Shown here piece after piece: positions 2,256-53,222 of a DNA stretch of 64,000 nt (position 1 is its first letter; every line of letters begins with the position of its first letter). The stretch is taken from assembly GCA_902762295.1 (NCBI GenBank), contig CACWNX010000001.1, forward strand, positions 532,094-596,093, read 5' to 3'. Under the pieces are notes generated by a model. That model saw only the letters and a program-made list of their open reading frames with translations, was not told the DNA's origin and searched no databases. Origin of the DNA: an uncultured Pseudomonadota bacterium. GTDB taxonomy: Bacteria > Pseudomonadota > Alphaproteobacteria > Rs-D84. Position numbers and translations under genes: made by a program.

Positions 2256-4468
2256 ATGAATTGTTGCAATTGAAAGGCAGATTTGAACAAAAAGCACGCA
2301 ATACCACTTTGGGAAGCCCTAATTTACCGACCAATGGTGTATTAAATGTGGAACATTTACGTGAATTAAAGTCTGAACTTGAATACCTTTTGGAATATTG
2401 GAAAGGCAACACAGTTATAAATGGTGCTTTGATAAGTGTGTTTTATACAGATATTATTCCAAAAAGCAGAAGAATCACGGGAACCTTTGCTAATGGCAAT
2501 ATTCATTCTAATGATTCTGTGGTTGGTGCCAAATTTATCGACGACGGCAAAACAAAACATGTTATAACACACTATATCTCTTTGGAATTATTAAAGAAAA
2601 CAATCGGGTTTTACGAATTAGCAATAGATGCATTGACGATTTTATTTAAAGGGGTCGTATCATACACAGATATTGATAAGATGAATAAAAAAATAATTCC
2701 ATATGATTACGATGGTCTGACTAAAACTAAATTTTTAAACATCATTATTGATGCGTATTATGTTGAAAAATTCGGAATAAATGTTCCAGAATACAATAAA
2801 AAGGAAAATTCAATTATTACAATTTATCAAACGGATATTCCAACTGGTTTGTTAATGGATCGTTTGGGAATAAAACTTCCGCCGACACGTATTATAGACC
2901 AAACAACAATGCTATTAACTCCCGATCAAATTGGTATTCTTTTTGATAAAGCCCCATATCTTGTGTCAATGTCTGTGACGGATTTGTCCAAATTCGATGA
3001 TATTGAATTAAAATTCACACAAACAAATAATACTATTGCGTCGATACCGTCCCCGAGTACAGAGCCTGTTATTGGTGTTATAGATACTCTTTTTGATAAT
3101 CGGGTCTATTTTTCTGAATGGGTAGAATACAAAGATATGGTATCTGCAGACATACCAAAAAAACAATCGGATTATGAACATGGGACAGCTGTTTCATCTA
3201 TCATAGTTGATGGTCCAACATTTAATCCAGAATTGGACGATGGCTGTGGCAGGTTTAGAGTTAGACATTTTGGCGTTGCAACTGGTGGTTCATTCAGCTC
3301 CTTTTCCATTTTGCGAGCCATCAAAGAAATTGTGGCAGCAAACAAAGATATAAAAGTATGGAATCTGTCATTGGGATCACAGTTGGAAATTAATGAAAAT
3401 TTCATATCACCAGAAGCCGCAATTCTTGATTCCATTCAGGCTGAAAATGATATTATTTTTATAATAGCTGGTACAAATAAAATAGACCCAAAATCAAAAA
3501 ATGTATTGATAGGTGCACCTGCAGATTCCATCAATTCGCTTGTCGTGAATGCAGTGACCCCTAAAAATTTGCCAACTGATTATTCCAGACGTGGCCCAGT
3601 ATTATCTTTTTTTATGAAACCTGACGTGAGTTATTATGGTGGTACAGATGACAACCGAATTCGGGTATGTACACCAACTGGTGAAAAACTTGTGCAAGGA
3701 ACATCCTTTGCGGCGCCTTGGATTGCCAGGAAAATGGCGTATTTGATTCATATTGCCGGTTTAACCAGAGAAGTGGCGAAAGCTTTGATTATAGATGCGG
3801 CAACTGGATGGAAAAAAGAAACAGATACAACAGAATACATCGGGCATGGCGTAGTCCCGGTCAAAATAAATGATATTGTTCAATCCCCAAAAGACGAAAT
3901 AAAATTCTTTTTGTCTGGCAAATCTGAGAAATACGATACCTATAATTATAATATACCTGTTCCAATTTCCAATGAAAAACATCCATTTATTGCGAAAGCA
4001 ACTCTGTGTTATTTTCCTGCGTGTTCAAGAAATCAAGGGGTGGATTATACCAATACGGAATTAGATATTTTATTTGGCAGGATTGGCAACGATAATGCGA
4101 TAAAACCAATTAATAACAATTACCAATCGGAAGTCGGACATTTCATGTATGAAAAAGAAGCCAGAAAATATTACAGAAAATGGGACAACATTAAACACAT
4201 TCGAGAAACAGAAAATAAAAACAAACCAAAGAAAATTTATACCGGGATGTGGGGAATTAGTATAAAAACAAAAGAACGCTTAGAACAAAAATTTGGCGAG
4301 GATTTGAAATTTGGAGTAGTTATAACACTAAAAGCAATTGATGGTGTAAACAGAATTGAAGATTTTATACAGCAATGTTCTTTACGCGGTTGGTTGGTTA
4401 ATAGAATCAACATTGAAAATAAAATTGATATTTATAATGCTGCAGAAGCTCATGTTGATTTTAGTTAA
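2252..4468 (+). CDS. ietS: S8 subtilisin-like serine protease, IetS-like.
   Basis: Asp motif VIGVIDT, His motif HGTAVSS, Ser motif GTSFAAPWIA in the canonical order, after a ~250-aa N-terminal extension. Translationally coupled to the upstream ATPase. Confidence 0.7.
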   Translation: MNELLQLKGRFEQKARNTTLGSPNLPTNGVLNVEHLRELKSELEYLLEYWKGNTVINGALISVFYTDIIPKSRRITGTFANGNIHSNDSVVGAKFIDDGKTKHVITHYISLELLKKTIGFYELAIDALTILFKGVVSYTDIDKMNKKIIPYDYDGLTKTKFLNIIIDAYYVEKFGINVPEYNKKENSIITIYQTDIPTGLLMDRLGIKLPPTRIIDQTTMLLTPDQIGILFDKAPYLVSMSVTDLSKFDDIELKFTQTNNTIASIPSPSTEPVIGVIDTLFDNRVYFSEWVEYKDMVSADIPKKQSDYEHGTAVSSIIVDGPTFNPELDDGCGRFRVRHFGVATGGSFSSFSILRAIKEIVAANKDIKVWNLSLGSQLEINENFISPEAAILDSIQAENDIIFIIAGTNKIDPKSKNVLIGAPADSINSLVVNAVTPKNLPTDYSRRGPVLSFFMKPDVSYYGGTDDNRIRVCTPTGEKLVQGTSFAAPWIARKMAYLIHIAGLTREVAKALIIDAATGWKKETDTTEYIGHGVVPVKINDIVQSPKDEIKFFLSGKSEKYDTYNYNIPVPISNEKHPFIAKATLCYFPACSRNQGVDYTNTELDILFGRIGNDNAIKPINNNYQSEVGHFMYEKEARKYYRKWDNIKHIRETENKNKPKKIYTGMWGISIKTKERLEQKFGEDLKFGVVITLKAIDGVNRIEDFIQQCSLRGWLVNRINIENKIDIYNAAEAHVDFS

Positions 4469-5156: not shown

Positions 5157-5417
5157 TTTTTCTAATCCTTTGGTTGATTAACTGTTTCAATTTAATAGAA
5201 CGTTTGTGGAATAAGCACCAAGAAACTAATCCGTTAAAACTTTAAAATCTTTGTCTGCCTTGGTTTTCTAAGGATTTTTAATTATAAAAATTTATTCATA
5301 AAAAATTCTGAAACTAAAAAAAATATGTTGATTTTATCGTTGGTTTGTTTTATAGTCCTATTCGTGGATAAAAAGAAGTATTCACAGTTTTTAATATTAA
5401 AAATAAAAGGAAAAAAA

Positions 5418-7331
5418 ATGAGACAATCAAAAACAACTTTAAAAGAATTAACCGCTCAATATCGTAGCGTGTTAAAACGTGCTTTTATTGCTGGTGTTAT
5501 GGCTGTCGCAACCGCTAATAGCGCAAATGCAGCAATTACACCTAGTGATATTAGTACCATTAACGATAGTATCAATATGGTGCAATCGGATGGAAATTAT
5601 ACAACTAGCATGGGTGATTTTAATGCTGGCACAACCGATTATAGCACTGCGGCAGGATATGGTTTGTACACATACGACCATGATAATAATCCAGAAACAG
5701 CAGAAATTGCATTAACTACAAACGATGGTAGTGAAACATTAGATAATACAGTATTCACATATACAGACAATACTGGTGCAACAACTAACTTAGGTGATAA
5801 TGCAACTGGATTTACAACAAGTGATTTTACAGGTGCGGCCGGAACAATAGATGTTGCTGATGGTACAACTGATTTGACAACATTAGAAGCAAATACAACA
5901 ACCGTTGGTTTAGGAAATTATCAATATATGGCTAACTTTGATAACTCTGGTGATGCATTAACAGCTTTGACAGAGGATGCACCAGAATTGAGTTCTTTCC
6001 ATAATGATATTACTTTAACAACAGGTGCAATCACTGTTAACGGAAACGACGAAGTAAACAAACCAAGTATCGACCAATATGGTTTTGCTATTACATTGCA
6101 TGATGGCAGCACAGGAAACTTTGATTTGGTTTATAATGAATCTACACACTTGTATTCTTATAATTATGATGGCGATGTTGTATTGGATGCAGCAGATATT
6201 GCAGCTGCGGATGCACAAGTTTCATCACAGTCTGCAAATTTAATTGCTGACACAACATTGTTCAATGGTGCTGTTGCGACAAACACAACCAATTATAACA
6301 GTGCAGTTGGCCATTATAATACTGTTCATGGTGTTTATGAATCTGATACAAATACTCAAAGCACATTAAATACTAATTATGGTAATTATGAAACAAGCTT
6401 TGCAGAAGCACAGGCGAATCAAACTGCTGCTGCTGGAAACTTATCAGAAGCACAAGGGGCTTATGCTGCTGATTTAGCAATATATACTCCGGTTGCAACT
6501 GCATATAATAACTATGAAAATTCTTTGGGTAAAAGTATAGACGCAAAGGATGAAACTGTATTAACAAGTGCAAAAGATTATGCAGATAGTTTAGCAGATA
6601 ACTATGATGCAGCGGGTTCAGCTGATGCCGAAAAGACACGTGCACAAGGTGAAGAAACCGCTATCCGTAGTGAATTTGCAGCAGCTGATACAACTCTGCA
6701 GAACAATATCGATGCAGAAACAAGTCGCGCGCAAGGGGAAGAAACCGCTATCCGTAGTGAATTTGCAGCAGCAGACACTACTTTGCAAAACAACATAAAT
6801 GCAGAAGCAACAGCTCGTCAAGCTGCAGATACTACATTGCAAGCTAACATCGATGCCGAAGCAAGCACTCGTGCAGCTGCTGATACAACTTTGCAGAACA
6901 ATATCGATGCTGAAGCTTTAGCTCGTGCTAATGCTGATACGGCATTGCAGAACAATATCGACAACGAAGTTGCTCGTGCTACAGCACAAGAAGCTGCTAT
7001 CCGTGGCGAAATTGCCGCTGCTGATGCTATGACATTGTCAAAAGCTAACTCTTACACAGACAGCCGTGTGAACACACTTGAAAAGAATGTATCTGGTGGT
7101 GTTGCAGCAGCTACAGCCTTATCATCAGTAGAAGTATCTAATGTAAAGAAAGGTGAAGTATCCGTTGGTGGTGGTTACGGATATTACAACAGCCAATCTG
7201 CAATGGCATTAGGTGCAGCTATGGGCTTGTCTGATAGATGGTCCATCAATGCAGGTGCCGGTATTGCAAGTGGTGATAAAACACAAGTAGCATTCCGTGC
7301 CGGTACAAACTACAAATTTAAATTGTTTTAA
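5418..7331 (+). CDS. Trimeric autotransporter adhesin, YadA-like.
   Basis: RBS plus ATG at 5418 (MRQSKTTL...). Long extended signal peptide ending ANSANA. Thr/Asn-rich passenger. Coiled-coil stalk with 14-26-aa repeats (AADTTLQNNIDAE...). C-terminal ~70-aa YadA-type anchor ending ...AFRAGTNYKFKLF. Confidence 0.7.
   Translation: MRQSKTTLKELTAQYRSVLKRAFIAGVMAVATANSANAAITPSDISTINDSINMVQSDGNYTTSMGDFNAGTTDYSTAAGYGLYTYDHDNNPETAEIALTTNDGSETLDNTVFTYTDNTGATTNLGDNATGFTTSDFTGAAGTIDVADGTTDLTTLEANTTTVGLGNYQYMANFDNSGDALTALTEDAPELSSFHNDITLTTGAITVNGNDEVNKPSIDQYGFAITLHDGSTGNFDLVYNESTHLYSYNYDGDVVLDAADIAAADAQVSSQSANLIADTTLFNGAVATNTTNYNSAVGHYNTVHGVYESDTNTQSTLNTNYGNYETSFAEAQANQTAAAGNLSEAQGAYAADLAIYTPVATAYNNYENSLGKSIDAKDETVLTSAKDYADSLADNYDAAGSADAEKTRAQGEETAIRSEFAAADTTLQNNIDAETSRAQGEETAIRSEFAAADTTLQNNINAEATARQAADTTLQANIDAEASTRAAADTTLQNNIDAEALARANADTALQNNIDNEVARATAQEAAIRGEIAAADAMTLSKANSYTDSRVNTLEKNVSGGVAAATALSSVEVSNVKKGEVSVGGGYGYYNSQSAMALGAAMGLSDRWSINAGAGIASGDKTQVAFRAGTNYKFKLF
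6620..6975 (+). repeat. Intragenic near-identical tandem repeats within the adhesin stalk. Unit ~78 bp; two copies nearly perfect, with ~3 further degenerate copies.
   Basis: The protein segment RAQGEETAIRSEFAAADTTLQNNIDAE is duplicated. TTLQ(N/A)NIDAEA repeats occur seven times. Confidence 0.8.
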
Positions 7332-9553: not shown

Positions 9554-11341
9554 TCAGAAATCCTTGTTCTGAATCTGATAAATCAGTTGCGCGAAGCACC
9601 GATTTACGACAGTTGGACAGTAGTGTTCGCCCAGCATTGTTCTGAATTCATCATCCGTCACCACAATATCACCGTGTTGTATTGCGGTTGGGTCGGATTC
9701 AGGAATCGGACCATTTTTGCACCAGATATTACCTTTGCCGTCTCTGATTTTGATTTTTTCAGGTAATTCAAAATCTTTCGGCATACCCATCAACACCAGA
9801 ATTTCATAAAGTGTTCTATGCCGTGCGTCAGACTGTGTTCCATTTGTTCTGCAACGACCAGCCGGAAAATAATGCGCCGGTGCACCAGAGTGTGAAGATT
9901 CGCCAGTAATTGTTGGGGCCGGTCTATCACCATGTGCGCGTTTGATATTCACTTTCTCTATGCTACCGTCCGAATTATGAACTAATGCCAAAGTGTTTTT
10001 GCCTGCCTCGGTATTTTTCAACGCTTCAATAATTTCTGGTGCCAAATCCAGCGCATAATGCAATCGATTAACATCCATTCTTTGTTCGCCGGCTTCAATA
10101 GAAGGAATATCCTGCAAACACAGTTCTTCTGAAATTTTGAATTCATCTGGTTTGGGAAATTTCCAGACATTGGCGTCGGTTATTTCGGTTGTACCAAGAA
10201 TCTTTTGCACAAATTCTTTTTTGATACCCAGAATTATCGCACGATTACGGTTTTCGCCTGTGCCATAGCAATCTGCGTTAAGATAATCAATGTTGGTGAT
10301 GTAGCCCAATTCGTCGGCCTTATCTTTGATGTAATCATAGACGGTATCATAATTTTCATCTTTAATTGTGTCTGGACAACCTCCCAAAAATTCGGGAACG
10401 TTTTCACACATAAACATATCGTTATTATCACCGATATCCTCCAAAAATTGCATACCATACATGACCAATGAAGCATCAACCCGATTGACATTTTGTGTAC
10501 CCGCCTTGGAATAGGACTGACACGGCGGTGACATTAACACCACGCGGCATCTCCGCTTTTTGTGTGCTTTCAAAATCTGTTTGTATACGCTTAGGTTGGC
10601 TATACTACCCGTTATGACTTTACAACTTGGGTACAATTCTTGATGAATTTGCGCCCGTTTATCATGTAATTCGTTTGCTACGGCAACATTGATGTTCAAA
10701 TTTTTCAACAGGCACGTGCCTAAACCGATGTTTGCAAATAAACTGGTTGCACGCACTGTTTTATCAAATTTAACATTTGCTGGCAAAACAATATTTGAAA
10801 ACGCACCATGACATGTGTGTGTTGCCAATTTGGGATTTTTCTTTTTACAGCCCCTTTTTATTGTCAAGGCGCTGTTGATGCTTGGTACATCACCATTGGC
10901 CTTGGCTTCTGCTTTGGCTTTCGCCACACAGTCTGCGTCCAATTCACAGATGCTATGCCAGCGTTTGCCTTTTTTAAACCCATGCGCTTCCATTAATTTA
11001 TCTTTTGCTATCCGTGCTGCTGTAACTGCTGCGCCACTGCCTTTTGTGGGGCCAAGCGCTCTGACTTTATCCGCAATTCTGACGCCTTCATCCAATACTT
11101 TTCCAGCAATATCTTGCGCAAGGTCCAGCAAGTAATTATACAATTCTGGTTCCATATATGCGCAAGACCTCATAAGTTCAATTGCCGCATCAGTCGCTAT
11201 CATTCCCTGTGAAATATAGTCCGCTGTTCCAGCAGGTGTGGCAGGTAAAGCGGGTGGTGCCACAGTTATTACTGCTGGGGTTGAAGTTGTTAATGTTGGT
11301 GCTGTTGCACCGCTTGAAATAGATATACTTTTTGTTGCCAT
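9554..11341 (-). CDS. DNA (cytosine-5)-methyltransferase with a ~190-aa N-terminal extension.
   Basis: Motif I LFANIGLG, motif IV PPCQSYSKAG (the PCQ catalytic Cys), motif VI CENVPEF. The N-terminal region MATKSISISSGATAPTLTTST... is low-complexity. Confidence 0.85.
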   Translation of the reverse strand: MATKSISISSGATAPTLTTSTPAVITVAPPALPATPAGTADYISQGMIATDAAIELMRSCAYMEPELYNYLLDLAQDIAGKVLDEGVRIADKVRALGPTKGSGAAVTAARIAKDKLMEAHGFKKGKRWHSICELDADCVAKAKAEAKANGDVPSINSALTIKRGCKKKNPKLATHTCHGAFSNIVLPANVKFDKTVRATSLFANIGLGTCLLKNLNINVAVANELHDKRAQIHQELYPSCKVITGSIANLSVYKQILKAHKKRRCRVVLMSPPCQSYSKAGTQNVNRVDASLVMYGMQFLEDIGDNNDMFMCENVPEFLGGCPDTIKDENYDTVYDYIKDKADELGYITNIDYLNADCYGTGENRNRAIILGIKKEFVQKILGTTEITDANVWKFPKPDEFKISEELCLQDIPSIEAGEQRMDVNRLHYALDLAPEIIEALKNTEAGKNTLALVHNSDGSIEKVNIKRAHGDRPAPTITGESSHSGAPAHYFPAGRCRTNGTQSDARHRTLYEILVLMGMPKDFELPEKIKIRDGKGNIWCKNGPIPESDPTAIQHGDIVVTDDEFRTMLGEHYCPTVVNRCFAQLIYQIQNKDF

Positions 11342-16724: not shown

Positions 16725-18956
16725 TTATTTTCCAAATTTTCCACTGCGTGGAAATCCAACCGGGATTGTGCGCCCCTGGGTCGCGCGTTTGCCCGTCCAT
16801 GGTGTCCAATCATCCAATCGTGTTGTTCCACGTCCCGTTGTCCATCCAAAACCATCCGTCGCATTAAATGTCATCACGTCCAGAACATATGTGCGTTCGG
16901 CATTGTATTTCTGTAAAATAACACCCTTGCCACGAATCATTTCCGGAATTTCAGCCAGCGGGAATATCAGCAATTTATCATTTGAACCCGACATTGCAAC
17001 GGTGTCGCCCGTGACAGTAATACAGAATGCCGCCGGATTTTTATCATCCGTGTTCATAACCTGTTTGCCGGTACGCGTTTGGGCAACACAGTTTTCGCCC
17101 GCCACAATAAATCCGTTTCCGTGTCGTGATACCACCAAATACTTTGCCGATGTGTTCAAAACAAATGCGGCGACAATATTTTCTTCGGCACCAATATCCG
17201 CCATCATGCGAACCGATTCGCCAAAACCGCGCGCAGATGGCAAATCATTCGCCGTCAATGTAAACATACGGCCCGATGATCCGAACAGATTAATTTTGTC
17301 TGTGGACATTGCATGAAATGCAAATGCCAGTTCGTCGCCTTCTTTGAATTTCAAATCCAATGCGTTCAAATCCAAGTGACCCTTTGCCGCACGAATCCAA
17401 CCCATATTTGACAGTATTATTGTCAGTGGCTCCTTCTCGATAAATTCATCGGCATTCACAATGATTTCTTCGGTTTCGGGGGCCCATGTTGTACGCCGCC
17501 GCCCCAATGCCGTTTTTTTATCGTATTGCTTTTTTATATCGGCGAACCAGGCCTTTATCTGGTTGTTTTGAATTTCCGCGCTGTCAAGTAATGCGTTTAA
17601 TTGTTCGCGTTCTTCACGCAGATTTTTATCTTCGCGTCGGATTTCCATTTCTTCCAATTTTCGCAATGCACGCAGACGGGTGTTTAATATAGATTCAACC
17701 TGGATATCTGTTAATTTAAATTCATCCATTAATACGGCCTTAGGCTCATCTTCGGTTCGGATGATTTCAATTACGCGGTCAAGATTTAAATACACGACCA
17801 ACAAACCGCCCAAAATTTCCAATCGCCGTTCAATATTTGCCAAACGCCAACGTGACCGTCTGCACAGGACATTTTTCTGGTGCGCAATAAATTCCAATAA
17901 CACATCGCGAATGCCCATAACGCGCGGTGCGCCACGCGAATCAATCACATTAAAATTCATGTTAAATTTATATTCGGCATCCGTCATCGCAAACAAATGC
18001 GCCATCATTTTATCCGCCGGAATATTGCGCGACTTTGGTGTGATAACAATACGAACATCGGTGGTTGATTCGTCAACAATATCATCAATCAATGGCAATT
18101 TCTTTGCATCAACCATTTCGCCGATTTGTTCCATCAATTTAGACTTGATAATTCCGTATGGAATTTCGGTGATCACAACCTGGTATCCGCCACGTTCCAG
18201 TTCTTCAATTTCCCACCGTGCGCGAATACGGAATGAACCCTTGCCACTTTCATAGTTTTTAACAATTGTATCAAAATCGTCAATTAAGACACCACCGGTT
18301 GGAAAATCTGGGCCAATCATCTTACGGCAAATTTGTGCTGTGGTCGAATCGGGTTTATCCACCATAAGGGTCAATGCATCACATACCTCGGCCACATTGT
18401 GGGTTGGAATATTTGTTGCCATACCAACCGCAATACCCATACCACCATTCGCCAGTAAATTTGGGAACGCACCCGGCATAACAACCGGCTCAACCGTTGT
18501 GCCGTCAAAGTTTGGCATCATGTCAACACTGTCCTCGTCGATGCCGTCCATAATCAGCATCGCAGCATCGGTCATTTTTGATTCGGTGTAACGATATGCG
18601 GCCTGGGGGTCACCATCAATGTTTCCAAAATTACCCTGGCCATCAATCAGTGGATAGCGTACGGAAAAATCCTGGGCCAGGCGGACCATAGCATCATAGA
18701 CCGACGAATCGCCATGTGGGTGATAGTGTCCCAACACATCGCCAACAACCGTTGCGCATTTGCGAAATGCCGCCGATGGGGATAACTTTTGCCGCAACAT
18801 AGAATACAAAATACGGCGGTGAACAGGCTTTAACCCATCACGGACATCGGGCAGGGCACGCGATACAATCGTACTGACCGCGTAAGACAAATAACGCGTG
18901 GACAGTGCGTCCGCCAACTGCTGAGAATCAATCTTTTCAACTACTTCTTTTGCCAT
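16725..18956 (-). CDS. parC: DNA topoisomerase IV subunit A (type IIA topoisomerase A subunit, ParC-length).
   Basis: N-terminal [21 protein letters not shown] and the active-site region. 743 aa is shorter than typical GyrA. Confidence 0.7.
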
Positions 18957-25090: not shown

Positions 25091-26515
25091 ATGAATATTT
25101 TTCTTATTATGTTGATGTCATTATTTATGGCGGGATATTATATGTTCTTTGCGCCAAACACACGCGTTCGGGAACAAGAAACCGAACGTGCAATTGTTGT
25201 TTCAGATTTGCGTTCGGTCGCCGAATGTACAATTGCGGTTCATAATGCAACGATTGCAGGCGGCGTATTTGATGATGTTTGTGTGGCGCAAAATGATATT
25301 AAAACATCAAACTTTTGTTTGGATTCACGTGGTTCGATGGCCCAGTGTGACGGTGATGGGTCAAAGCGCGCGGTGGCGAACTTTATTGTGACTACAACGG
25401 CCCCACTGGATATATCTGATTACAACAATATGATGGAAATATTAGAGCAAAGTTTCGCAACCAGTGGTTCATTTGGGTTGTTCCAGGATGGATTTATCAT
25501 GGCGGGTGGAACAACATCTAAACGCACAGTTCCCGATGCAGTACAAAAACAATTGAATTTGGAAAATGGTCAACTGGTATATATGACACACTATGAAAAC
25601 CCTGGGGCAGGAAAGGTGTTTACGGTCACCGGCGGTGAAAATATTGTTTGTCCGGCCGGGACAAATAAAACATATCGTTTCGGGCGATGGCAATGTATCG
25701 GATATAATTTTAAAACCACATGTGGTGGTGATATGATGTGGGATAATACCTTATCTGAATGCGTGCCAGATGAATCACGCAAACCATTGTGCACTGGGAA
25801 TCAGACGGCGGTTATGGTTGAAAATTTATGGGAATGTGTCGACCCGTTCGCCGAACGCCAATGCCCGACCGGCATGTTGGCACGATTAAATTATGAAACA
25901 TTGGAATGGGAATGTGTTGAAGATCCAACCAACGTAAAGCCAAAATCAAAATGCACAATACCGAATATTCGTGTTGTGCGTGGCCGAGATGGCGCAACAT
26001 TAAGGTTGGCATCAACATCATGCACGGACTGTGAAAAAATGCTGATAAACGAAACCACGTGCGATGCAGTATGTGTGCCTGATCCGACCAAGATAACATC
26101 TCCGTCGTGTTATCCCGGGCGCGTTTCTGAATGCAGCGGTCCATCGCGTGCATTGTATTTTGGATTTCCAAATGCGGCATATGTTGCAAATGTGACCGAT
26201 GTAGCGAATTTGGAAGTGCCGTTTGATGGATTACATTCCCAGAATCGTAAATTTAATTGTTTTGAATGTCCAACTGGAATTATTGATGGTTCGCGTTCGG
26301 TGGCACCGTATGTTGCCGTGTGTACCAATAGGGCATATGCCAAAACATCATCTGATTCGGAATTTGATGCATCTGCATTGGACCCAGATTCGTACTGGGA
26401 ATATGGCCCTGAATCAGAAATTATGCCCGAAACTATCGAAAAAACAGACGAGAAACCAATTGAAAAATCTGAATCAGAATCGGATTTGGGCGCAAATGAT
26501 TTGTTTTCACGGTAA
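25091..26515 (+). CDS. Cysteine-rich protein with an N-terminal hydrophobic anchor (474 aa), unknown function.
   Basis: MNIFLIMLMSLFMAGYYMFF anchor. ~30 Cys, many in CxxxC/CPxG-type spacing. Acidic C-terminal tail. Confidence 0.6.
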   Translation: MNIFLIMLMSLFMAGYYMFFAPNTRVREQETERAIVVSDLRSVAECTIAVHNATIAGGVFDDVCVAQNDIKTSNFCLDSRGSMAQCDGDGSKRAVANFIVTTTAPLDISDYNNMMEILEQSFATSGSFGLFQDGFIMAGGTTSKRTVPDAVQKQLNLENGQLVYMTHYENPGAGKVFTVTGGENIVCPAGTNKTYRFGRWQCIGYNFKTTCGGDMMWDNTLSECVPDESRKPLCTGNQTAVMVENLWECVDPFAERQCPTGMLARLNYETLEWECVEDPTNVKPKSKCTIPNIRVVRGRDGATLRLASTSCTDCEKMLINETTCDAVCVPDPTKITSPSCYPGRVSECSGPSRALYFGFPNAAYVANVTDVANLEVPFDGLHSQNRKFNCFECPTGIIDGSRSVAPYVAVCTNRAYAKTSSDSEFDASALDPDSYWEYGPESEIMPETIEKTDEKPIEKSESESDLGANDLFSR

Positions 26516-26754
26516 AAATCATAAAGTTATCTACATATAGATAGAAATATCGATTCGCAAACTATATTTTGTGTTTTTTATGTTTTGCGAATCGCTTTCA
26601 AGGTAATTTTTATAATTTCGTTGATACAAAACACATTTTGGTGTGCGAATCGGTAAGTCGGTCACAGTCTGAATCGCCCGGATATGTGCCATTTTTAAAA
26701 GTAAAGTAAAAAAATAAAAAAAATTGCATTTTGTGTGTTGTTTATAATTGTCAA

Positions 26755-26803
26755 AAACTATATATTGTTGACGAAGTAATAACACGAACACAATATATTG
26801 TGT
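26755..26803 (+). promoter_or_regulatory. Tandem NrdR boxes upstream of nrdD.
   Basis: ACACAATATATTGTGT at 26788-26803 is a perfect 16-bp palindrome matching the NrdR-box consensus acaCwAtATaTwGtgt. A degenerate box AAACTATATATTGTTG sits ~33 bp upstream, consistent with the usual two-box spacing. Confidence 0.55.
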
Positions 26804-26855
26804 TTTTTGACAAAATTGGAGTTTTATAATGTCTGATACGCAGAAAGGGGGGAAA

Positions 26856-28871
26856 ATGCAAATTGCACCGACATTCGTTTGTAATATAATGAGTGTTCAG
26901 AAACGTTCGGGTGAAACGGTCACCTTTGATGCGAAAAAAATTTACGATGCAATTAAAAAGGCCGCATGTGCCACAAATGAAATATCTGATGAACGTGTTG
27001 TCCAAATCACAAATGAAGTATTGACCGATTTGGACAATAATTTTATGGGGCGCATTCCATCGGTCGAAGAAATTCAAGACACGGTTATTCGTAAATTGAT
27101 GGATTCCAGAGTTTATAAAACGGCCCAGGCATATATAATCTATCGTCAGAAACATTCTGAAATTCGTAACGCAAATGTTGATGCCGTTGACATAATTGAA
27201 AGTTATGTTGGTGGTTCGAACTGGCGTATTAAGGAAAATGCGAATATTGGTTATTCAATTGGTGGGCTGATTTTGCGTACCAGTGAACGTGTGACCGCAG
27301 AATATTGGCTGAATTTGATACCAACGGAAATTGCCGATGCGCATCGCAATGCGGCAATTCACCTGCATGATTTGGGTTGGTTAACCGGTTATTGTGCGGG
27401 TTGGTCATTGCGTGAGTTATTATATGAAGGTTTTAACGGCGTTCCGGGATATCTGCAGTGTGAACCGGCGCGTCATATGGCAACGGCGATTTCACATATG
27501 GTGAATTTCCTTGGAACATTGCAAAACGAATTTGCAGGTGCCCAGGCGTTTTCATCGGTTGATACATATCTGGCACCGTATGTTCGTATTGATAAAATGT
27601 CGTATGCAGATGTTAAGAACGCAATGCAGACATTGGTGTTTAACTGTGCGGTTCCGTGCCGCTGGGGAACCCAGACACCGTTTATCAACTTTACATTTGA
27701 TTGGACATGTCCAAAGGATTTACGCGCCCAGCGTCCATTCGTCGGTAAACAACAGGTCGATTTCACTTATGGTGATTTGCAGGCGGAAATGGATATGATA
27801 AACAAGGCATTCATAGAGGTTATGACCGAAGGTGATGCCCAGGGTCGTCCGTTTACCTTTCCAATTCCAACATATAATATAACGGATGATTTTCCTTGGG
27901 ACCATCCAAATGTGAAACCGTTGTTTGATTTGGCGGCAAAGTACGGTATCCCAAATTTCCAGAACTTTTTGAATTCTGATTTGAATCCAACGGATGTGCG
28001 TTCAATGTGTTGCAGGCTTCGCCTTGATGTACGCGAATTGTTAAAACGCGGTGGTGGTTTGTTTGGTTCGGCGGAAAAAACTGGATCTATTGGGGTGGTG
28101 ACAATGAATCTGGCACGGTTGGGATATTTGCACAAGGGTGATCGTGATGGTTTGTTCCGTGAATTAGAAAAACTGATGAACATGGGACGTGAATTTTTGG
28201 AAATTAAACGTCGGGTGATATCAAAGCATATGGAAAACGGTTTATATCCATTTACGCGTCGATATCTTGGAAACTGGAATCATCACTTTTCAACAATCGG
28301 TGTGAATGGTGCGAACGAAATGGTGTTGAACTTTACAAATGGTAAGGAAAATATCGCGACACCATATGGAAAGAAATTTGTTCTTGATTTAATGGACTTC
28401 ATGCGTGAAAAATTGGCGAATTTCCAGGAAGAAACCGGGAACCTGTATAATCTTGAAGCGACCCCGGCCGAAGGCTGTTCATATCGTTTTGCGAAAACAG
28501 ATGTTAAGAATTTCCCAGATATTATTACCGCCGGGACGCACGATGCACCATATTATACGAATTCAACCCAGTTGCCGGTGAACTTTACCGATGATCCGTT
28601 TGTTGCACTGGAACACCAGGAAGAATTGCAACGCAAATATACCGGTGGGACGATGTTGCATCTGTATATGGGTGAACCGGTGTCATCGGGCGAGGCGGCT
28701 CAAAAAATCGTTCGTACGATATTTGAAAATTACAAGATTCCGTATATGACCTTGACTCCGACATTTTCAATATGTCCAAAACATGGTTATTTACCGGGAC
28801 GACACGAGTTTTGTCCGAAATGTGATGCAGAATTAGGAATTACACCCGATGATGCATCAAACCGGGCATAA
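26856..28871 (+). CDS. nrdD: Anaerobic ribonucleoside-triphosphate reductase NrdD, catalytic chain lacking the C-terminal glycyl-radical domain.
   Basis: Strong SD AAGGGGGG before the ATG at 26856. N-terminal ATP cone (VQKRSGETVTFDAKKIYDAI). C-terminal Zn-ribbon remnants (CPKHG...CPKCD), then a stop. No RxxGY radical motif in this frame. Confidence 0.85.
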   Translation: MQIAPTFVCNIMSVQKRSGETVTFDAKKIYDAIKKAACATNEISDERVVQITNEVLTDLDNNFMGRIPSVEEIQDTVIRKLMDSRVYKTAQAYIIYRQKHSEIRNANVDAVDIIESYVGGSNWRIKENANIGYSIGGLILRTSERVTAEYWLNLIPTEIADAHRNAAIHLHDLGWLTGYCAGWSLRELLYEGFNGVPGYLQCEPARHMATAISHMVNFLGTLQNEFAGAQAFSSVDTYLAPYVRIDKMSYADVKNAMQTLVFNCAVPCRWGTQTPFINFTFDWTCPKDLRAQRPFVGKQQVDFTYGDLQAEMDMINKAFIEVMTEGDAQGRPFTFPIPTYNITDDFPWDHPNVKPLFDLAAKYGIPNFQNFLNSDLNPTDVRSMCCRLRLDVRELLKRGGGLFGSAEKTGSIGVVTMNLARLGYLHKGDRDGLFRELEKLMNMGREFLEIKRRVISKHMENGLYPFTRRYLGNWNHHFSTIGVNGANEMVLNFTNGKENIATPYGKKFVLDLMDFMREKLANFQEETGNLYNLEATPAEGCSYRFAKTDVKNFPDIITAGTHDAPYYTNSTQLPVNFTDDPFVALEHQEELQRKYTGGTMLHLYMGEPVSSGEAAQKIVRTIFENYKIPYMTLTPTFSICPKHGYLPGRHEFCPKCDAELGITPDDASNRA

Positions 28872-28914
28872 AAGTTTAACAATTAACACAATCAAAACAG
28901 GAAAGGAGAGTAAA

Positions 28915-29100
28915 ATGATTGCAAACACACAACAAAGAACACCATGTGAAGTTTTTTCGCGCAGTATGGGATTTATCCGACCGGTAAGTAATTTTAATAT
29001 TGGTAAATATTCGGAATTCTGTGAACGAAAAACATTTACCGAAGCGAACAGTTTGACCGCCGGCATACGCCATTGTGATTTATTGAAAAAGGTGGCATAG
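28915..29100 (+). CDS. Stand-alone NrdD glycyl-radical domain protein (61 aa).
   Basis: Own SD GGAAAGGAGAG 7 nt before the ATG at 28915. TPCEVFSRSMGFIRPVSNFNIGKYSEF matches the NrdD C-terminal radical motif (RVxGYxRPVxxWNxGKxxE). Confidence 0.6.
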   Translation: MIANTQQRTPCEVFSRSMGFIRPVSNFNIGKYSEFCERKTFTEANSLTAGIRHCDLLKKVA

Positions 29101-29105
29101 TAAAC

Positions 29106-29807
29106 ATGAATACGATTCAGATTGGCGGGTTGGTATCGTTCACAACGATAGATTATCCGGGCAAATTGGCATGTGTGCTGTTTCTGGTTGGTTGTCCAAT
29201 TCGTTGTGCGTATTGTTCCAACCCGCATCTGATTCCGTGTGAATCGGGCGAATACGATCCCGAAAAAATTTTTGATTGGTTAAAGACGCGGGTTGGTAAG
29301 TTAGAAGCCGTCGTCTTTTCCGGTGGAGAGGCACTGATGCAGGGCCCCGCACTTTTTGAATATATACGCCGTGTGCGCGATTTGGGCTTCAAAATTGGTT
29401 TGCATACCAATGGATTTTATCCTGAAAATTTAGCCGCTGCCTCGGATTTAGTTGATTGGATTGGCCTGGATTACAAGGCGACAAAATCAAATTATGAAAA
29501 ATTAACTGGTGTAAATATCGCCTATGAACGGATGATAAAAAGTCTTGATATATGGGCAAAAACCGGCAAGCCATGTGAAGTTCGGACGACTTGTGATCCA
29601 AGATTTGTTTCGTCCGATGATTTACGAAAAATTGCGCACGATGTGGCATCGCGCGGAATTAAAAACTTTGCCGTTCAGAAATATGTTCCACATTTTGAAG
29701 ATGATGAACACAAAACAAGTGCCGAAATGCGAAATGCATTTTTTAATGATGATGATTTGCGCGACGAAATAAATTCTCTGTTTGAAACCGTAACCTGGCG
29801 GGAATAA
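29106..29807 (+). CDS. nrdG: Anaerobic RNR activating protein, radical SAM.
   Basis: CPIRCAYCSNP is a CxxxCxxC radical-SAM cluster near the N-terminus. Immediately downstream of nrdD. Confidence 0.85.
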   Translation: MNTIQIGGLVSFTTIDYPGKLACVLFLVGCPIRCAYCSNPHLIPCESGEYDPEKIFDWLKTRVGKLEAVVFSGGEALMQGPALFEYIRRVRDLGFKIGLHTNGFYPENLAAASDLVDWIGLDYKATKSNYEKLTGVNIAYERMIKSLDIWAKTGKPCEVRTTCDPRFVSSDDLRKIAHDVASRGIKNFAVQKYVPHFEDDEHKTSAEMRNAFFNDDDLRDEINSLFETVTWRE

Positions 29808-29809
29808 TA

Positions 29810-30391
29810 TCAATTTTCATAGATAAACAATTTATGTGGCCACACAATGCCATTCCATCGTGTTGCGCCATATCGCGACAAATCAACGGTGCGGGCGGGG
29901 CGCATTCCGCGTATCGGCGCATCCAATGTTATTAAAACGCGGAATTTTTTTGCATATGGACGCAATTTATCGTTTATGCCCGGTCCCAGATATGCAATGC
30001 CTATATCAATATGCCGGCGCATTTTTCTGATGTATTTAAATGCGTCGGCACGAATCGCAATGCAATTACGCGTACGAAAAATAAAATTAAACATTTTCAA
30101 TACAGCAAATGAAAACGGCATATTTTCAATCGCGTAAACCGTTGCATTGGTGCGACGGGCAATTTGTCGTGCCAGTCCACCATATCCTGCACCAATTTCT
30201 ATAACAGTTTTTGCATTTGTATAGCGTGTGCGAATTTCCTGCACAACCGCGCGGCGTAATGCATCAGCGGATGGTACGAAAGGAATTTGGTGAAAACGAA
30301 AAACACACAATGCACGCTCGATATTTTGTATTATTTTATACAAAATGAACACGCCCATCAGGACACATAAAACTATAAGAAATGTTTTCAT
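29810..30391 (-). CDS. SAM-dependent methyltransferase (KsgA/Erm-like fold) with an N-terminal TM segment.
   Basis: Motif I VIEIGAGYGGLAR. Confidence 0.65.
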   Translation of the reverse strand: MKTFLIVLCVLMGVFILYKIIQNIERALCVFRFHQIPFVPSADALRRAVVQEIRTRYTNAKTVIEIGAGYGGLARQIARRTNATVYAIENMPFSFAVLKMFNFIFRTRNCIAIRADAFKYIRKMRRHIDIGIAYLGPGINDKLRPYAKKFRVLITLDAPIRGMRPARTVDLSRYGATRWNGIVWPHKLFIYEN

Positions 30392-30485: not shown

Positions 30486-30579
30486 CGGATGGTTGGCAGA
30501 GCGGTTGAATGCATCCGACTTGAAATCGGACAAGGTATGAAATAAGACCTTCGGGGGTTCAAATCCCTCACCATCCGCC
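30486..30579 (+). tRNA. tRNA-Ser (anticodon TGA).
   Basis: GGATGGTTGGCAGAGCGGTTGAATGCATCCGACTTGAAATCGG + a long variable arm + GGGGGTTCAAATCCCTC ACCATCC G CCA. The anticodon loop CTTGAAA gives TGA. Confidence 0.85.
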
Positions 30580-35202: not shown

Positions 35203-37404
35203 ATGTTTAAGTCTGGAACAGTTGTAAAAGTTTTACTGCCAAATGTTGTGAATTCTGGGTACGACTATCGGTTGATTGCTGATGCCGATTTAGGTACTTT
35301 TGTGCGTGTGACGGTTATGAATCGTCCGTATATTGGTGTGGTTTTTGGAATAGGGGACAGTGGTTTACCGGCCGATAAAATAAAAAATGTGCAGCGGGTT
35401 TTTCCTTGGAAAATATCAGTGGCGGATTTGCAATGGATTCAAAAAATGTCTGATTGGACACTGATGACACCCGGTGCAGTTTTGCGTTTGATTCTGAATG
35501 TGCCGGACGCGTTTTGCGAGCCGCGAACCGAGCAACTGTATTCATATAACTTTGATGCCAACAAATCCAAAATGACCGAAAATCGTCAAATGGTTTTTGA
35601 TGCGTTTGAAATGAACGATAATGAACCAATGTCAATAACTGATATTCAAAATATCGCACATGTTGGGGCATCGGTTGTTCGTACAATGGTTGCTCGTGGA
35701 ATGCTGAATCCGGTTGCATCACGAAATATTGTGCGAACATTTAAATATGAATATTCAGACATAGGTACAGTAGAACTTAATAAAGAGCAACGCGCAGCCG
35801 CCGATGCGATTGCGCGCGATATCACCAATGGGGGCTTTTCAGTGAATTTACTTGATGGTATCACCGGCAGTGGTAAAACCCAGGTGTATTTTGATTCGGC
35901 ATGGCGTGCATACAGCACCGGTAAATCGGTATTGCTAATGATGCCGGAAATCGCACTGACCGCCCAATTTATAAAAAGATTTGAATCGCGATTTGGTGCG
36001 CCACCTGTTGTTTGGCACAGTAATTTAACCGCTGCGCGTAGGCGCGATATATGGCGTGGTGTTATGTGCGGTGATATTCGTATGGTCGTTGGAACGCGCA
36101 GTGCATTGTTTCTGCCGTGGCAAAATCTTGGTTTGATTGTGGTGGACGAAGAGCATGATTCATCATATAAACAGGAAGATATGGGGAACTATCATGGACG
36201 CGATATGGCGATTTTGCGCGCAAAATTGTCCGATTTTCCGGTCGTATTGGCCAGTGCGACACCATCCGAAGAAACAATGCGCAATGTTGAAATTGGTCGT
36301 TTTGGACACTTGATTTTAAAGTCGCGATATGGTGGTGCCGAATTACCAAAAATTGAAACAATCGATATGCGCGAAAATAAACCGGCAGAATATTGTGTGA
36401 ATTCGGAAACCGGCGATATGAAGCCGGGGTATTTGTCACCGATGCTCTGCGATGCGATTGGCGAAGTTTTGAATAAACATCAGCAGGCAATGTTATTCAT
36501 AAATCGTCGTGGTTTTGCACCGATTGTTCAATGTAAAAAATGTGGTTGGGTTGCGACATGTCCAGATTGTTCAATTGGTATGACATACCATAAAAAAATT
36601 GGAAAACTATTATGTCACATATGTGGGCGAACCGTAAGTTTGCCTGATAAATGTCCCGACTGTGGCAATGATGTTTCAATGCGTGGCGCAGGTTTGGAAA
36701 AAATAGAAGAAGAAGTACATGTAAAATTTCCACATGCGCGAACCGCCCTGGTGTCCAGCGATACAATGGTGTCGCGTGGTGCACTGGAACGAATGGTTAT
36801 GCGTATGGAATCGGGCGAATTAGATATAATAATTGGAACACAAATTTTGGCCAAGGGACACCATTTTCCAAATCTGACATTGGTTGGTGTTGTTGATGCC
36901 GATATGGGATTATTCGGAACGGATTTTCGCGCCCCCGAACACACATTTCAACAATTATTCCAGGTCGCCGGTCGTGCCGGTCGTGGCGCGATGCCTGGGC
37001 GTGTAATGTTGCAAACATATCAACCAACACACCCTGTGTTGGTTGCAATTTGTAATGGTAATCGTGATGAGTTCCTGCACGCCGATATGGATGCCCGCAA
37101 ATCTGCAAAGATGCCCCCGTTTGGTCAATTGGTTGCCGTTATTGTAGAATGCAAGAACGAATCAAAATTAAAAAAATTCTGTGATGAATTGGCACAAAGT
37201 GTTCCAAATGCATCTGGGGTGCGCATAATGGGCCCGATTGTTGCGCAAATGTACCAAGTTCGTGGTTTTTATCGTATGCGATTTCTTGTTTGTGGTGATG
37301 CACGTTCGGCGCTGCAACCGATTGTAAAACTATGGATGTCTCGTGTAAATGTGCCGGCAAATATTCGTGTTAAATTAGATGTTGGTCCCCAAAATTTTAT
37401 GTAA
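35203..37404 (+). CDS. priA: Primosomal protein N' (PriA helicase).
   Basis: Walker A DGITGSGKTQVYF, DEEH box, Cys-rich Zn region (CKKCGW...CPDC...CHICG...CPDCG). Confidence 0.9.
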   Translation: MFKSGTVVKVLLPNVVNSGYDYRLIADADLGTFVRVTVMNRPYIGVVFGIGDSGLPADKIKNVQRVFPWKISVADLQWIQKMSDWTLMTPGAVLRLILNVPDAFCEPRTEQLYSYNFDANKSKMTENRQMVFDAFEMNDNEPMSITDIQNIAHVGASVVRTMVARGMLNPVASRNIVRTFKYEYSDIGTVELNKEQRAAADAIARDITNGGFSVNLLDGITGSGKTQVYFDSAWRAYSTGKSVLLMMPEIALTAQFIKRFESRFGAPPVVWHSNLTAARRRDIWRGVMCGDIRMVVGTRSALFLPWQNLGLIVVDEEHDSSYKQEDMGNYHGRDMAILRAKLSDFPVVLASATPSEETMRNVEIGRFGHLILKSRYGGAELPKIETIDMRENKPAEYCVNSETGDMKPGYLSPMLCDAIGEVLNKHQQAMLFINRRGFAPIVQCKKCGWVATCPDCSIGMTYHKKIGKLLCHICGRTVSLPDKCPDCGNDVSMRGAGLEKIEEEVHVKFPHARTALVSSDTMVSRGALERMVMRMESGELDIIIGTQILAKGHHFPNLTLVGVVDADMGLFGTDFRAPEHTFQQLFQVAGRAGRGAMPGRVMLQTYQPTHPVLVAICNGNRDEFLHADMDARKSAKMPPFGQLVAVIVECKNESKLKKFCDELAQSVPNASGVRIMGPIVAQMYQVRGFYRMRFLVCGDARSALQPIVKLWMSRVNVPANIRVKLDVGPQNFM

Positions 37405-51680: not shown

Positions 51681-53222
51681 CTAGTCTATATCGTCTGGAA
51701 TTGCGGATAAATCAATTGGGACGGCATCAGGTGCATCCGATGTCGGTTCCGGTGCATCATCAACAAATTGTGGCACACGATTCGCCATGTCGTCCAGATT
51801 ATCAAACAAACTGTATTCGGCCAAGAATGCAACATTTACTGTATCGGTTCGGCCATGACGGTTTTTACCAATAATGATATCGGCTTTGCCACGTGATTTT
51901 TCCAAGCGCTTTTCCCACGAATCTTTGGATTTATCACTTGGAGTATTAGAAAGCCGGAATGATGGATCACGATTCGTTAAATAATATTCTTCGCGATATG
52001 TGAACATCACAATGTCGGCATCTTGTTCAATAGACCCAGATTCACGCAAATCGGCCAACTGGGGGCGTTTGTCATCCCGGGATTCAACACTGCGTGATAA
52101 TTGAGACAATGCAACCACCGGAACATTAAATTCTTTGGCCAGCATTTTTAAACTGCGTGTAATTTCAGATAATTCTTGGACACGATTATCTTTGTTTTTT
52201 CCGCCCGGTGAAGTCAGCAATTGCAGATAATCAACCACAATCAGTGCAATACCGTTATACTTTCGTGCCAATCGCCGTACACGCGTGCGAATCATCGGTA
52301 CCGACATCCCCGGTGTATCATCAATGAATAACGGAATACGACTTATCGCATCAGAAAATTGAGTCATTTTTAGAAAGTCTTCATCGGTCAGCGAACCTTC
52401 ACGCATTGCAGATGCCGGAATTCGTGATTGAGATGATAATACACGTGCCGCCAATTCAGATGCACCCATTTCAAGGCTGAAAAACGCAACCGCACCCTTA
52501 TATTGGCTGTTTGCACGACCAGAAAAGATTGCGTTTGCGGCATTGAATGCAATGTTTAGTGCCAATGCGGTTTTACCCATACCTGGGCGGCCGGCGATAA
52601 TCAACAGATTTGATTTATGCATGCCACTAATTGCACGATCCAAATCGGTCAACCCCGTGGTAAGCCCCGACAGTTTTCCATCGGCCTTGTATGCGATTTC
52701 TGCCTCAATCAAGGCATCTTTTAACGCATTTGCAATTGGTGTGACATCGCGCCCGGTATCACCAACGGTTGCAAGGTTGAATAATTTTTGTTCGGCAACT
52801 TCTATCTGGGTGGAAACCGGATTATCCAGGTCTTCCACAAATGCGGCATCGGTAATTCCCTGACCCAGGTTGATAAGTTCGCGCCGCAACGCATTGTCAT
52901 GCACGATACGACCGTATTGTTCAACATTTACCACCGTCGCCCCGGCCCCAGCCAACTGAGTCAGATAATCAACACCACCAACCGATTCCAATGTTCCCTG
53001 TTGGTCAAGGTAATTTTTAATTGTAATGATGTCAAACGGGATACCCGCCGCAAAGTGGCGCATAGCCAATTTATAAATTTCTTGGTGCGCGGGATGCGAA
53101 AAATCTTCGGGTTTTAAGAATTCAGAAATTTTTTCCAATGCCCGATTGTTCATCAGAACCGCGGCCAACACGGCCTGTTCGGCTTCTAAATTCGTTGGTA
53201 AAGTTTTGGGAGTGAAGTCCAT
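51681..53222 (-). CDS. DnaB-family replicative DNA helicase (~505 aa from Met MDFTPKT).
   Basis: N-terminal LEAEQAVLAAVL, Walker A GRPGMGKTALALNIA, Walker B IVVDYLQLL. The track ORF extends 77 codons further upstream, likely beyond the real start. Confidence 0.8.
   Translation of the reverse strand: MDFTPKTLPTNLEAEQAVLAAVLMNNRALEKISEFLKPEDFSHPAHQEIYKLAMRHFAAGIPFDIITIKNYLDQQGTLESVGGVDYLTQLAGAGATVVNVEQYGRIVHDNALRRELINLGQGITDAAFVEDLDNPVSTQIEVAEQKLFNLATVGDTGRDVTPIANALKDALIEAEIAYKADGKLSGLTTGLTDLDRAISGMHKSNLLIIAGRPGMGKTALALNIAFNAANAIFSGRANSQYKGAVAFFSLEMGASELAARVLSSQSRIPASAMREGSLTDEDFLKMTQFSDAISRIPLFIDDTPGMSVPMIRTRVRRLARKYNGIALIVVDYLQLLTSPGGKNKDNRVQELSEITRSLKMLAKEFNVPVVALSQLSRSVESRDDKRPQLADLRESGSIEQDADIVMFTYREEYYLTNRDPSFRLSNTPSDKSKDSWEKRLEKSRGKADIIIGKNRHGRTDTVNVAFLAEYSLFDNLDDMANRVPQFVDDAPEPTSDAPDAVPIDLSAIPDDID

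Follow-up and report, generated by a model that had tools for sequence, protein, structure and literature searches.

A predicted two-chain class III ribonucleotide reductase with its glycyl-radical loop on a separate small protein

Glycyl-radical enzymes are commonly taught as single chains in which a C-terminal loop swings out for activation and then swings back. The class III (anaerobic) ribonucleotide reductase NrdD, which supplies DNA precursors when oxygen is absent, and its activase NrdG are known as such a single-chain system from phage T4, Escherichia coli, Thermotoga maritima, Prevotella copri and Streptococcus thermophilus. The present work concerns the nrdD locus of an uncultured alphaproteobacterium of the Rs-D84 lineage (assembly GCA_902762295.1, contig CACWNX010000001.1, positions 532,094 to 596,093 of the forward strand), where the whole 64-kb stretch that was analyzed is referred to as the window. 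On its plus strand, positions 26829-29807 contain three open reading frames (ORFs) consisting of nrdD, a 61-codon ORF and nrdG. The locus has the same activase and predicted fold as the single-chain systems, the same domain order of ATP-cone, barrel, zinc site, glycine loop and tail, and the same invariant surroundings of the radical glycine (R-x-x-G-[YF] ... N-x-G-K-x-x-E). Unlike those systems, it has its chain interrupted after the zinc site, ahead of the glycine loop, and the predicted radical glycine lies on a protein of ~7 kDa.

Three other groups of described systems invite comparison. By virtue of being made from two ORFs whose products assemble into a catalytic chain without splicing, the split class II reductase NrdJa/NrdJb and the nrdA-a/nrdA-b pair of Aeromonas phage Aeh1 are similar (PMC9669993, PMC3045599, PMC3653736). 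They differ in reductase class and in break position, and neither of their pieces is a short radical-site peptide. A homing endonuclease gene lies between the halves in Aeh1, as it does in two loci described below (L090 and L121), while the spacer of the window has none. Among phage genomes, nrdD is the reductase gene most often split (PMC3653736). The phage nrdD interruptions, which include the T4 intron, inteins and the case of Aeromonas phage phiAS4, are either spliced out or represent unexplained fragmentation in a single genome; here, in contrast, a splicing element is absent and thousands of sequences share the break. The remaining likeness is to GrcA (YfiD), a small free-standing protein that bears a radical glycine and needs a radical-SAM activase. 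GrcA, however, is a member of the pyruvate formate-lyase (PFL) glycyl-radical family with roughly double the length, and it accompanies a full-length enzyme, coming into action only once oxygen has caused damage. Unlike the parent enzyme of GrcA, the neighbouring large chain is without a glycine loop in 81 of the 81 loci considered below.

With NrdJa/NrdJb (PMC9669993) and Aeh1 NrdA as the earlier two, the split NrdD makes three kinds of reductase that are split in nature, and as far as we have found it is the first to have its radical-bearing element on a short protein of its own. No literature description of a two-chain NrdD was found in open-access full text, including the main reductase phylogeny and phage papers, although subscription journals could hold one. 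This agrees with the original prediction for this DNA, which was made from the sequence alone and in which the split was not known as a described feature of NrdD. With thousands of examples already in the databases, and with 'nrdD' sometimes given to the small ORF by annotation pipelines, novelty does not lie in the sequences themselves but, it appears, in recognizing them as a two-chain enzyme.

The locus is organized as follows.

26856 to 28871, plus strand: nrdD large chain of 671 residues, with ATP-cone, catalytic barrel and zinc site; the glycine loop is absent
28773 to 28823, plus strand: predicted zinc site C640-x2-H643 ... C653-x2-C656 (CPKH...CPKC), retained on the large chain
28824 to 28868, plus strand: variable 15-residue tail of the large chain (DAELGITPDDASNRA), past 'DAE', differing in length and sequence among relatives
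28872 to 28914, plus strand: A-rich non-coding spacer of 43 nt, without an ORF, holding the Shine-Dalgarno (SD) sequence GGAAAGGAGAG at 28900-28910
28915 to 29100, plus strand: predicted small subunit of 61 residues, from ATG 28915, with the glycyl-radical loop and C-terminal tail
28969 to 28971, plus strand: codon for Gly19 (SRSMGF), the predicted radical glycine, invariant in alignments
29106 to 29807, plus strand: nrdG, radical-SAM activase of 233 residues with a match to TIGR02495 (NrdG2), beginning 5 nt past the small ORF

The arrangement that had been described in the original prediction, a 671-residue ORF without the radical motif and a 61-residue ORF 43 nt downstream in another frame, is therefore seen in the DNA, as are the ribosome-binding site and ATG that it had assigned to the small ORF. 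The likelier start of nrdD is ATG 26856, which stands behind AAAGGGGGGAAA, while an alternative upstream ATG at 26829 would give 680 residues. At its C-terminus the chain reads ...FSICPKHGYLPGRHEFCPKCDAELGITPDDASNRA (in a longer excerpt, ...SICPKHGYLPGRHEFCPKCDAELGITPDDASNRA) and meets its stop codon at 28871, 15 residues past the zinc site. The protein encoded by the small ORF is MIANTQQRTPCEVFSRSMGFIRPVSNFNIGKYSEFCERKTFTEANSLTAGIRHCDLLKKVA. Its residues 8-42 are equivalent to the NrdD C-terminus, and its residues 43-61 form a conserved extension specific to the clade. The frame of the small ORF is offset by one base relative to that of nrdD and is open back to at least 28849, overlapping the end of nrdD. 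No terminator-like site was found between the three co-oriented genes, and an Rfam scan of the window returned two tRNAs only, with no RNA element in the operon. Judged from this layout, a single operon of the nrdD large chain, the small subunit and nrdG appears to be the best explanation.

Profile matches divide one NrdD between the two ORFs. The large chain matches the Pfam ATP-cone (E 6e-22) and positions 1-528 of 562 of Pfam NRDD (E 1.8e-170), as well as NCBIfam NF006126 at positions 3-651 of 684 (1031.5 bits, cutoff 548) and TIGR02487 (461.5 bits, cutoff 326). The small ORF matches NRDD at 530-562 of 562 and NF006126 at 649-682 of 684. As the profile coordinates of the two ORFs adjoin, the pair tiles one NrdD profile end to end. 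The small proteins score below the cutoff of every NCBIfam model, and no match of the small ORF to Pfam Gly_radical (PF01228) was obtained at E up to 1, which leaves NRDD as the sole relevant Pfam family matched. Searches of the small ORF against solved-structure sequences, both with the single sequence and with a profile, gave nothing useful because the peptide is too short. The nrdG ORF matches Pfam Radical_SAM and Fer4_12 along with TIGR02495 (E 4.9e-54, 182.6 bits, cutoff 131). The glycyl-radical motif R-x-x-G-[YF] is not on the barrel polypeptide and is carried instead by the 61-residue ORF. On every sequence criterion but one, the system is a class III reductase; the exception is the placement of the radical motif on a separate chain.

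To locate the break and the key residues, the concatenated chains of the window were aligned with 49 fused homologues. C640, C653 and C656 are invariant across these homologues, and position 643 is the His within the CPxHGY motif that was used for scans. The three cysteines and His643 therefore make up a complete four-ligand predicted zinc site common to the fused relatives. The original prediction had located this site correctly before the stop codon, but had described it as Zn-ribbon remnants, which is too weak for a complete site. The CPKCDA of the window aligns with CPKCGS at residues 699-704 of the Prevotella copri NrdD structure. In that structure the glycyl-radical domain spans residues 676-739 and consists of a structural zinc site, then the buried Gly711 loop, then a tail that forms a short helix across the top of the barrel (PMC11226230). 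The alignment therefore puts the break within the glycyl-radical domain, with the zinc site on the large chain and the loop and tail on the small protein. In fused relatives, just 3-12 residues separate the CxxC from the loop-opening 'CEV(Y/W)SR', where the window has 15 variable tail residues, a stop codon, the spacer and a leader of ~10 variable residues. Within the small protein, R16, G19, K31 and E34 fall in columns that are invariant among the fused homologues. Gly19 itself does not vary among 24 clade members, the 49 fused homologues (where it is column G690) or 40 small subunits of diverse origin. On the large chain, C386 (in MCCRL) is invariant in 50 sequences and C385 is nearly so. 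From this conservation, we infer C386 to be the finger-loop thiyl-radical cysteine that would receive the radical.

The split is not peculiar to this genome. With the large chain as a query, a scan of one genome per GTDB species yielded 80 loci at 80-94% identity, many of them labeled Candidatus Enterousia and most of the others uncultured Alphaproteobacteria of rumen, hindgut or faecal origin. The order that includes Enterousia, Rs-D84, is uncultured, and its members have genomes of ~0.75-1.0 Mb and a purely fermentative metabolism (PMC12306168). All 80 species loci are split like the window and none is fused, which is the outcome for orthologous loci on which the original prediction of a genuinely split enzyme depended. 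In each of the resulting 81 loci, nrdD stops soon after CPxCD-A/E, most often with TAA (78 of 81), and a small ORF of 57-63 residues follows after a spacer of 24-59 nt. The spacer is 59% A over the 81 loci. An ATG start and an upstream SD-like motif are present in 81 of 81, the motif ending 5-8 nt before the ATG in 78, and in the 79 loci that extend far enough, nrdG starts 2-23 nt past the small ORF. The frame of the small ORF is offset from that of nrdD by 0, 1 and 2 bases in 30, 27 and 24 loci, respectively, an even pattern that is expected when a spacer is free to gain and lose bases. Where the two ORFs are in frame, 1-5 stop codons lie between them. Protein searches gave a matching picture. 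For the large chain, the 120 best homologues (84-96% identity) share the same end and have no glycine motif, and the best 120 of the 360 homologues of the small ORF are stand-alone proteins of 57-92 residues.

Selection was measured across all locus pairs, and for the small ORF it differs by segment.

Residues 8-42 (NrdD-homologous core): pN 0.083, pS 0.634, pN/pS 0.13
Residues 43-61 (extension): pN 0.179, pS 0.754, pN/pS 0.24
Residues 1-7: pN 0.514, pS 0.575, pN/pS 0.89

Near-neutral evolution of residues 1-7 is consistent with a free N-terminus. For the last 260 codons of nrdD, the median dN/dS is 0.045. Taken with the even frames and the SD and ATG signals, this purifying selection and the split in 80 of 80 relatives strongly support the original prediction that the enzyme is genuinely split. 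Past the usual end of NrdD, the Enterousia small protein carries its conserved 19 residues (TEANSLTAGxRHxELLKKAA), an extension that may add binding surface.

The concatenated chains were also modelled with AlphaFold2, supplied with an alignment of fused homologues. The resulting model has a mean pLDDT of 89.7 and a pTM of 0.83, with pLDDT at 91-95 for residues 10-39 of the small protein, ~68 at the chain junction and below 55 for the last ~12 residues. The alignment was needed, as single-sequence AlphaFold2 of the same chains gave an unusable model (pLDDT 34.7). In Foldseek, the model groups with the class III structures of S. thermophilus, P. copri, T. maritima and T4, which are the closest solved folds. 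The modelling shows that the small and large sequences are compatible with a normal NrdD fold.

We consider it quite probable that two separately translated chains and an activase form a functional class III reductase. The small protein, predicted to start at its own ATG behind a strong ribosome-binding site, would dock non-covalently into the large chain such that the Gly19 finger loop inserts beside the barrel cysteine (C386) and the tail lies over the ten-stranded barrel. Hydrogen abstraction by NrdG at Gly19 would take place on the small protein while it is free or on a loop that has flipped out, after which the radical would pass back and forth between the glycine and the cysteine exactly as it does in NrdD of the single-chain type. 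In the single-chain enzyme the glycine loop is completely buried (PMC11226230) and must therefore exit the barrel to reach its activase. Since the glycyl-radical domain can be fully disordered in P. copri structures and yet acquire the radical (PMC11226230), a covalently untethered loop is mechanistically plausible. Two features of the model weigh against this proposal. Because the alignment rows and the modelled chain are covalently continuous, it shows fold compatibility and not assembly, and the C-terminal extension (residues 50-61) is modelled at low confidence. What the sequences show is the anatomy of the genes, separate translation signals, conservation, purifying selection, a wide distribution and compatibility with the NrdD fold; assembly, activation by NrdG, catalytic activity and any benefit of the split are inferred.

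Sequence searches indicate that split NrdD is widespread in Proteobacteria, in many uncultured lineages and in phage-like contigs, and it occurs in hundreds of gut bacteria and in cultured soil and plant bacteria. When the large chain was searched against 1.84 billion representatives at 50% identity, 150 NrdDs were listed at 41-65% identity; among the 144 of these that were aligned to the profile, the glycine loop is absent from 80 and present in 64. The nearest relatives outside Enterousia (59-65% identity) are all truncated among the representatives listed. DNA was then scanned with a degenerate pattern encoding TPTFS[IV]CPxHGY, a motif that precedes the zinc site in fused and truncated forms. 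Among IMG/VR contigs, the motif-bearing nrdD genes were fused in 43 cases and truncated in 37, of which 23 have a glycine-loop ORF in the locus; several of the truncated loci in which none was seen are too short to reveal more. A metagenome scan and the remaining IMG/VR loci (L161-L287, n=127) added 63 fused and 62 truncated genes, with two loci running off the contig end. A glycine-loop ORF accompanies 62 of the 62 truncated genes, one of which (L204) is really a fused gene with a stop. In this locus, from metagenome contig Ga0265297_10102126, the in-frame stop lies within the glycine loop (RPVTH-stop-HDGKK) of an otherwise fused nrdD, and may be a pseudogene mutation, a sequencing error or a recoded codon.

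The 82 small ORFs collected in this manner encode 39-86 residues (median ~60) and come from loci of 27-72% GC. Among them, residues R, G, N, K, E and R are invariant, and a Cys right before the loop is nearly so. A profile of 40 diverse small proteins finds at least 7981 sequence clusters at E up to 0.001, the best 120 of which are all 47-110 residues long. In the 54 loci where nrdG is visible, the order is nrdD-small-nrdG in 45 and nrdD-nrdG-small in 6, and other genes separate the small ORF from nrdG in 3. In L113, genes for DUF5662 and guanylate kinase as well as nrdG lie between nrdD and the small ORF; in L110, the small ORF is found 3.2 kb upstream; and in 13 loci it overlaps the nrdD stop codon. 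Such variable order fits an independent gene and rules out cis-recoding as a general route.

Cultured organisms show the arrangement as well. A tblastn search with a high-GC small protein against plasmid and megaplasmid records identified 162 replicons, of which 133 are from Ralstonia, 7 from Bradyrhizobium, 5 from Cupriavidus and 4 from Paracoccus, with Allochromatium, Acidiphilium, Cereibacter and Azospira also present. Their annotation is uneven. Bradyrhizobium barranii pCC829_2 (L288) is annotated with a 678-residue 'ribonucleoside triphosphate reductase', a 63-residue 'nrdD' and an activase, the small ORF of Paracoccus ferrooxidans pFER4 (L289) is called a 'hypothetical protein', and for most Ralstonia records (for example L290, the R. 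solanacearum PSI07 megaplasmid) the gene table of the plasmid collection, which is incomplete, has no entry at the position of the small ORF. Overall, thousands of small ORFs are unannotated, 'hypothetical' or named as a whole 'nrdD', and truncated large chains are annotated as complete. Ralstonia solanacearum, Cupriavidus, Paracoccus denitrificans and Bradyrhizobium are cultured, tractable organisms with the split form, which provides a natural system for studying how an activase recognizes its loop, how the loop enters the barrel and whether a radical carrier can be exchanged after oxygen damage. In the gut symbiont Candidatus Enterousia, whose genome is ~1 Mb, the operon may be a main source of DNA precursors.

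Of the competing explanations, the one that survives best also assumes a working two-chain enzyme. It holds that the split has no benefit and is the tolerated scar of a mobile element, spread by descent and horizontal transfer, and we give it somewhat less than an even chance. Two phage-like IMG/VR contigs, and only these, carry free-standing homing endonuclease genes directly after the truncated nrdD, at the break point.

L090, 6274 to 6897: homing endonuclease, LAGLIDADG_3 (E 5.6e-8)
L121, 801 to 1313: homing endonuclease, NUMOD4 and HNH_3

Their position suggests that some splits began as mobile-element insertions, and Aeh1 nrdA-a/nrdA-b is a precedent for an insertion that left a working two-piece reductase (PMC3045599, PMC3653736). 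The relatives of this NrdD are, moreover, heavily colonized by inteins. P0244, P0282 and many of P0241-P0390 contain 1-4 LAGLIDADG-bearing inteins and are as long as ~1880 residues, in split and fused forms alike. A rough neighbor-joining tree mixes split with fused forms, and a Fitch count on it gives 23 state changes or more; the tree is too crude to decide between one origin and many, and therefore no conclusion is drawn from it. Against a scar without benefit, the split form makes up about half of the NrdD subfamily over a range of 27-72% GC and persists in streamlined 1-Mb genomes. The near-invariant Cys before the loop and the Enterousia extension likewise hint at adaptation to the two-chain state, although a benefit is not thereby proven. 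A mobile-element legacy and a benefit are not mutually exclusive.

What such a benefit might be is suggested by the chemistry of the radical. Oxygen cleaves glycyl-radical enzymes at the radical glycine (PMC3019208). In a two-chain enzyme, oxygen damage could possibly destroy only the cheap ~7-kDa small protein, which would amount to the logic of GrcA built into the enzyme itself. A bolder and more doubtful version, which we offer tentatively, is that the small protein serves as an exchangeable radical carrier that is activated while free, plugs into a vacant large chain and is replaced after cleavage at Gly19. If true, the 76-kDa chain would survive oxygen pulses that are fatal to single-chain NrdD, and the enzyme would have a built-in repair system. 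This could explain the frequency of the split form in facultative and microaerobic Proteobacteria, gut-wall symbionts and phages.

It is improbable that the small ORF is a GrcA-type spare part that rescues an oxygen-damaged, full-length NrdD encoded elsewhere, with the truncated chain being a relic or having another role. GrcA, as cited in PMC12288474 (references 158 and 159), does offer a precedent for repair of a cleaved enzyme by a glycyl-radical protein that stands alone. However, in every locus the adjoining large chain is itself cut short, purifying selection acts on it more strongly than on the small ORF, and the best NrdD match in each of the 80 related genomes is the truncated form. 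With genomes of only ~0.75-1.0 Mb (PMC12306168), there is little room for redundant reductases. The small ORF is also co-linear with nrdG in the 45 of 54 loci noted above. The analogy to GrcA that was drawn in the original prediction is thus apt for a free-standing glycyl-radical protein and fails for a spare copy: since the small protein carries what is apparently the only glycine loop, it would be an obligate subunit.

Still less credible is a single polypeptide produced by readthrough, programmed frameshifting, ribosomal bypass or protein trans-splicing. The spacer of 24-59 nt is near the size of the T4 gene 60 gap (50 nt), and GCA, the last sense codon of nrdD in the window, is also the third codon of the small ORF. 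A match between take-off and landing codons, however, is seen in 31 of 81 loci, fewer than the 36.7 that permuted pairs would predict. The even frame offsets and the 1-5 intervening stops of the in-frame loci speak against recoding, and elsewhere nrdG or other genes intervene, or the small ORF lies upstream, which leaves no general cis-recoding route. Trans-splicing was rejected on the grounds that the flanks of the break are near-neutral and too variable and short to represent the halves of a split intein; no dedicated intein search of the flanks was made.

A pseudogene, or a sequencing or assembly indel in a gene that is really contiguous, can be set aside almost entirely: a one-base indel in 28849-28868 would join the frames in the window and L204 does resemble a fused gene broken by a stop, but 80 of 80 species genomes, each assembled independently, have the split, with three frame relations and varied spacer lengths, no locus lacks the SD and ATG, selection on both parts is strongly purifying, and replicons of cultured organisms show the same arrangement. 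The pseudogene alternative that had been left standing in the original prediction is rejected by the lack of relaxed selection (core pN/pS 0.13; large chain dN/dS 0.045) and by a split common to all relatives. Its argument that a single-base frameshift could not rejoin the two parts without duplicated sequence was mistaken, as the indel just mentioned could do so while adding ~35 residues relative to fused homologues; the point is irrelevant because the comparative data exclude an indel artefact.

Variants of the two forms were encountered during the searches. In a second type of tail among truncated chains, the second pair of zinc ligands is CP(Y/F)xH instead of CPxC and is followed by TEE-L-FG. 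It occurs in P0258, P0271, P0272 and P0284 and in loci L082, L096, L138, L155, L183 and L257, and separate glycine-loop ORFs are present in these loci. L227 (metagenome contig Ga0209720_1000880) has coiled-coil-like sequence in both its large-chain tail (REREEIMLEIEKLKKLRSEL) and its small-protein leader (EEIDKRIVELEKKLKEVKGKE), and its small protein of ~186 residues combines the glycine loop with a Thioredoxin_3 domain. Its sequence hints that the pieces may be held together in another way. Among fused NrdDs, P0249, P0253, P0259, P0267, P0296 and P0300 have an extra glutaredoxin-like domain C-terminal to the glycine loop, with Pfam Glutaredoxin confirmed for P0249 only.

Upstream of the operon, three sites resemble the box bound by NrdR, to which we presume they belong on the basis of the box consensus ACACWATATATWGTGT.

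26559 to 26574, plus strand: NrdR-box-like site 1, distal (AAACTATATTTTGTGT), with 2 mismatches to ACACWATATATWGTGT
26755 to 26770, plus strand: NrdR-box-like site 2 (AAACTATATATTGTTG), with 3 mismatches, 33 nt upstream of site 3
26788 to 26803, plus strand: NrdR-box-like site 3 (ACACAATATATTGTGT), a perfect 16-nt palindrome with 0 mismatches

At up to 3 mismatches, these are the only three matches to the box in the 64-kb window, and all lie upstream of nrdD. No other reductase gene was seen among the ten window ORFs that were scanned. The neighbours at 2252-4468, 5325-7331, 9554-11341, 16725-18956, 35203-37404, 51681-53453 and 58844-61123 are ordinary chromosomal genes, their types being a subtilase, a YadA-anchor adhesin, a C5 DNA methylase, a GyrA/ParC-type topoisomerase subunit, PriA, DnaB and BamA, and the operon is therefore not in an obvious prophage. 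Just upstream of the operon, at 25091-26515 on the plus strand, is a 474-residue Cys-rich ORF with a hydrophobic N-terminus and no Pfam match at E up to 1e-5. Downstream, a 193-residue ORF without a Pfam match is convergent with nrdG (29810-30391, minus strand), and a tRNA follows at 30487-30577 on the plus strand.

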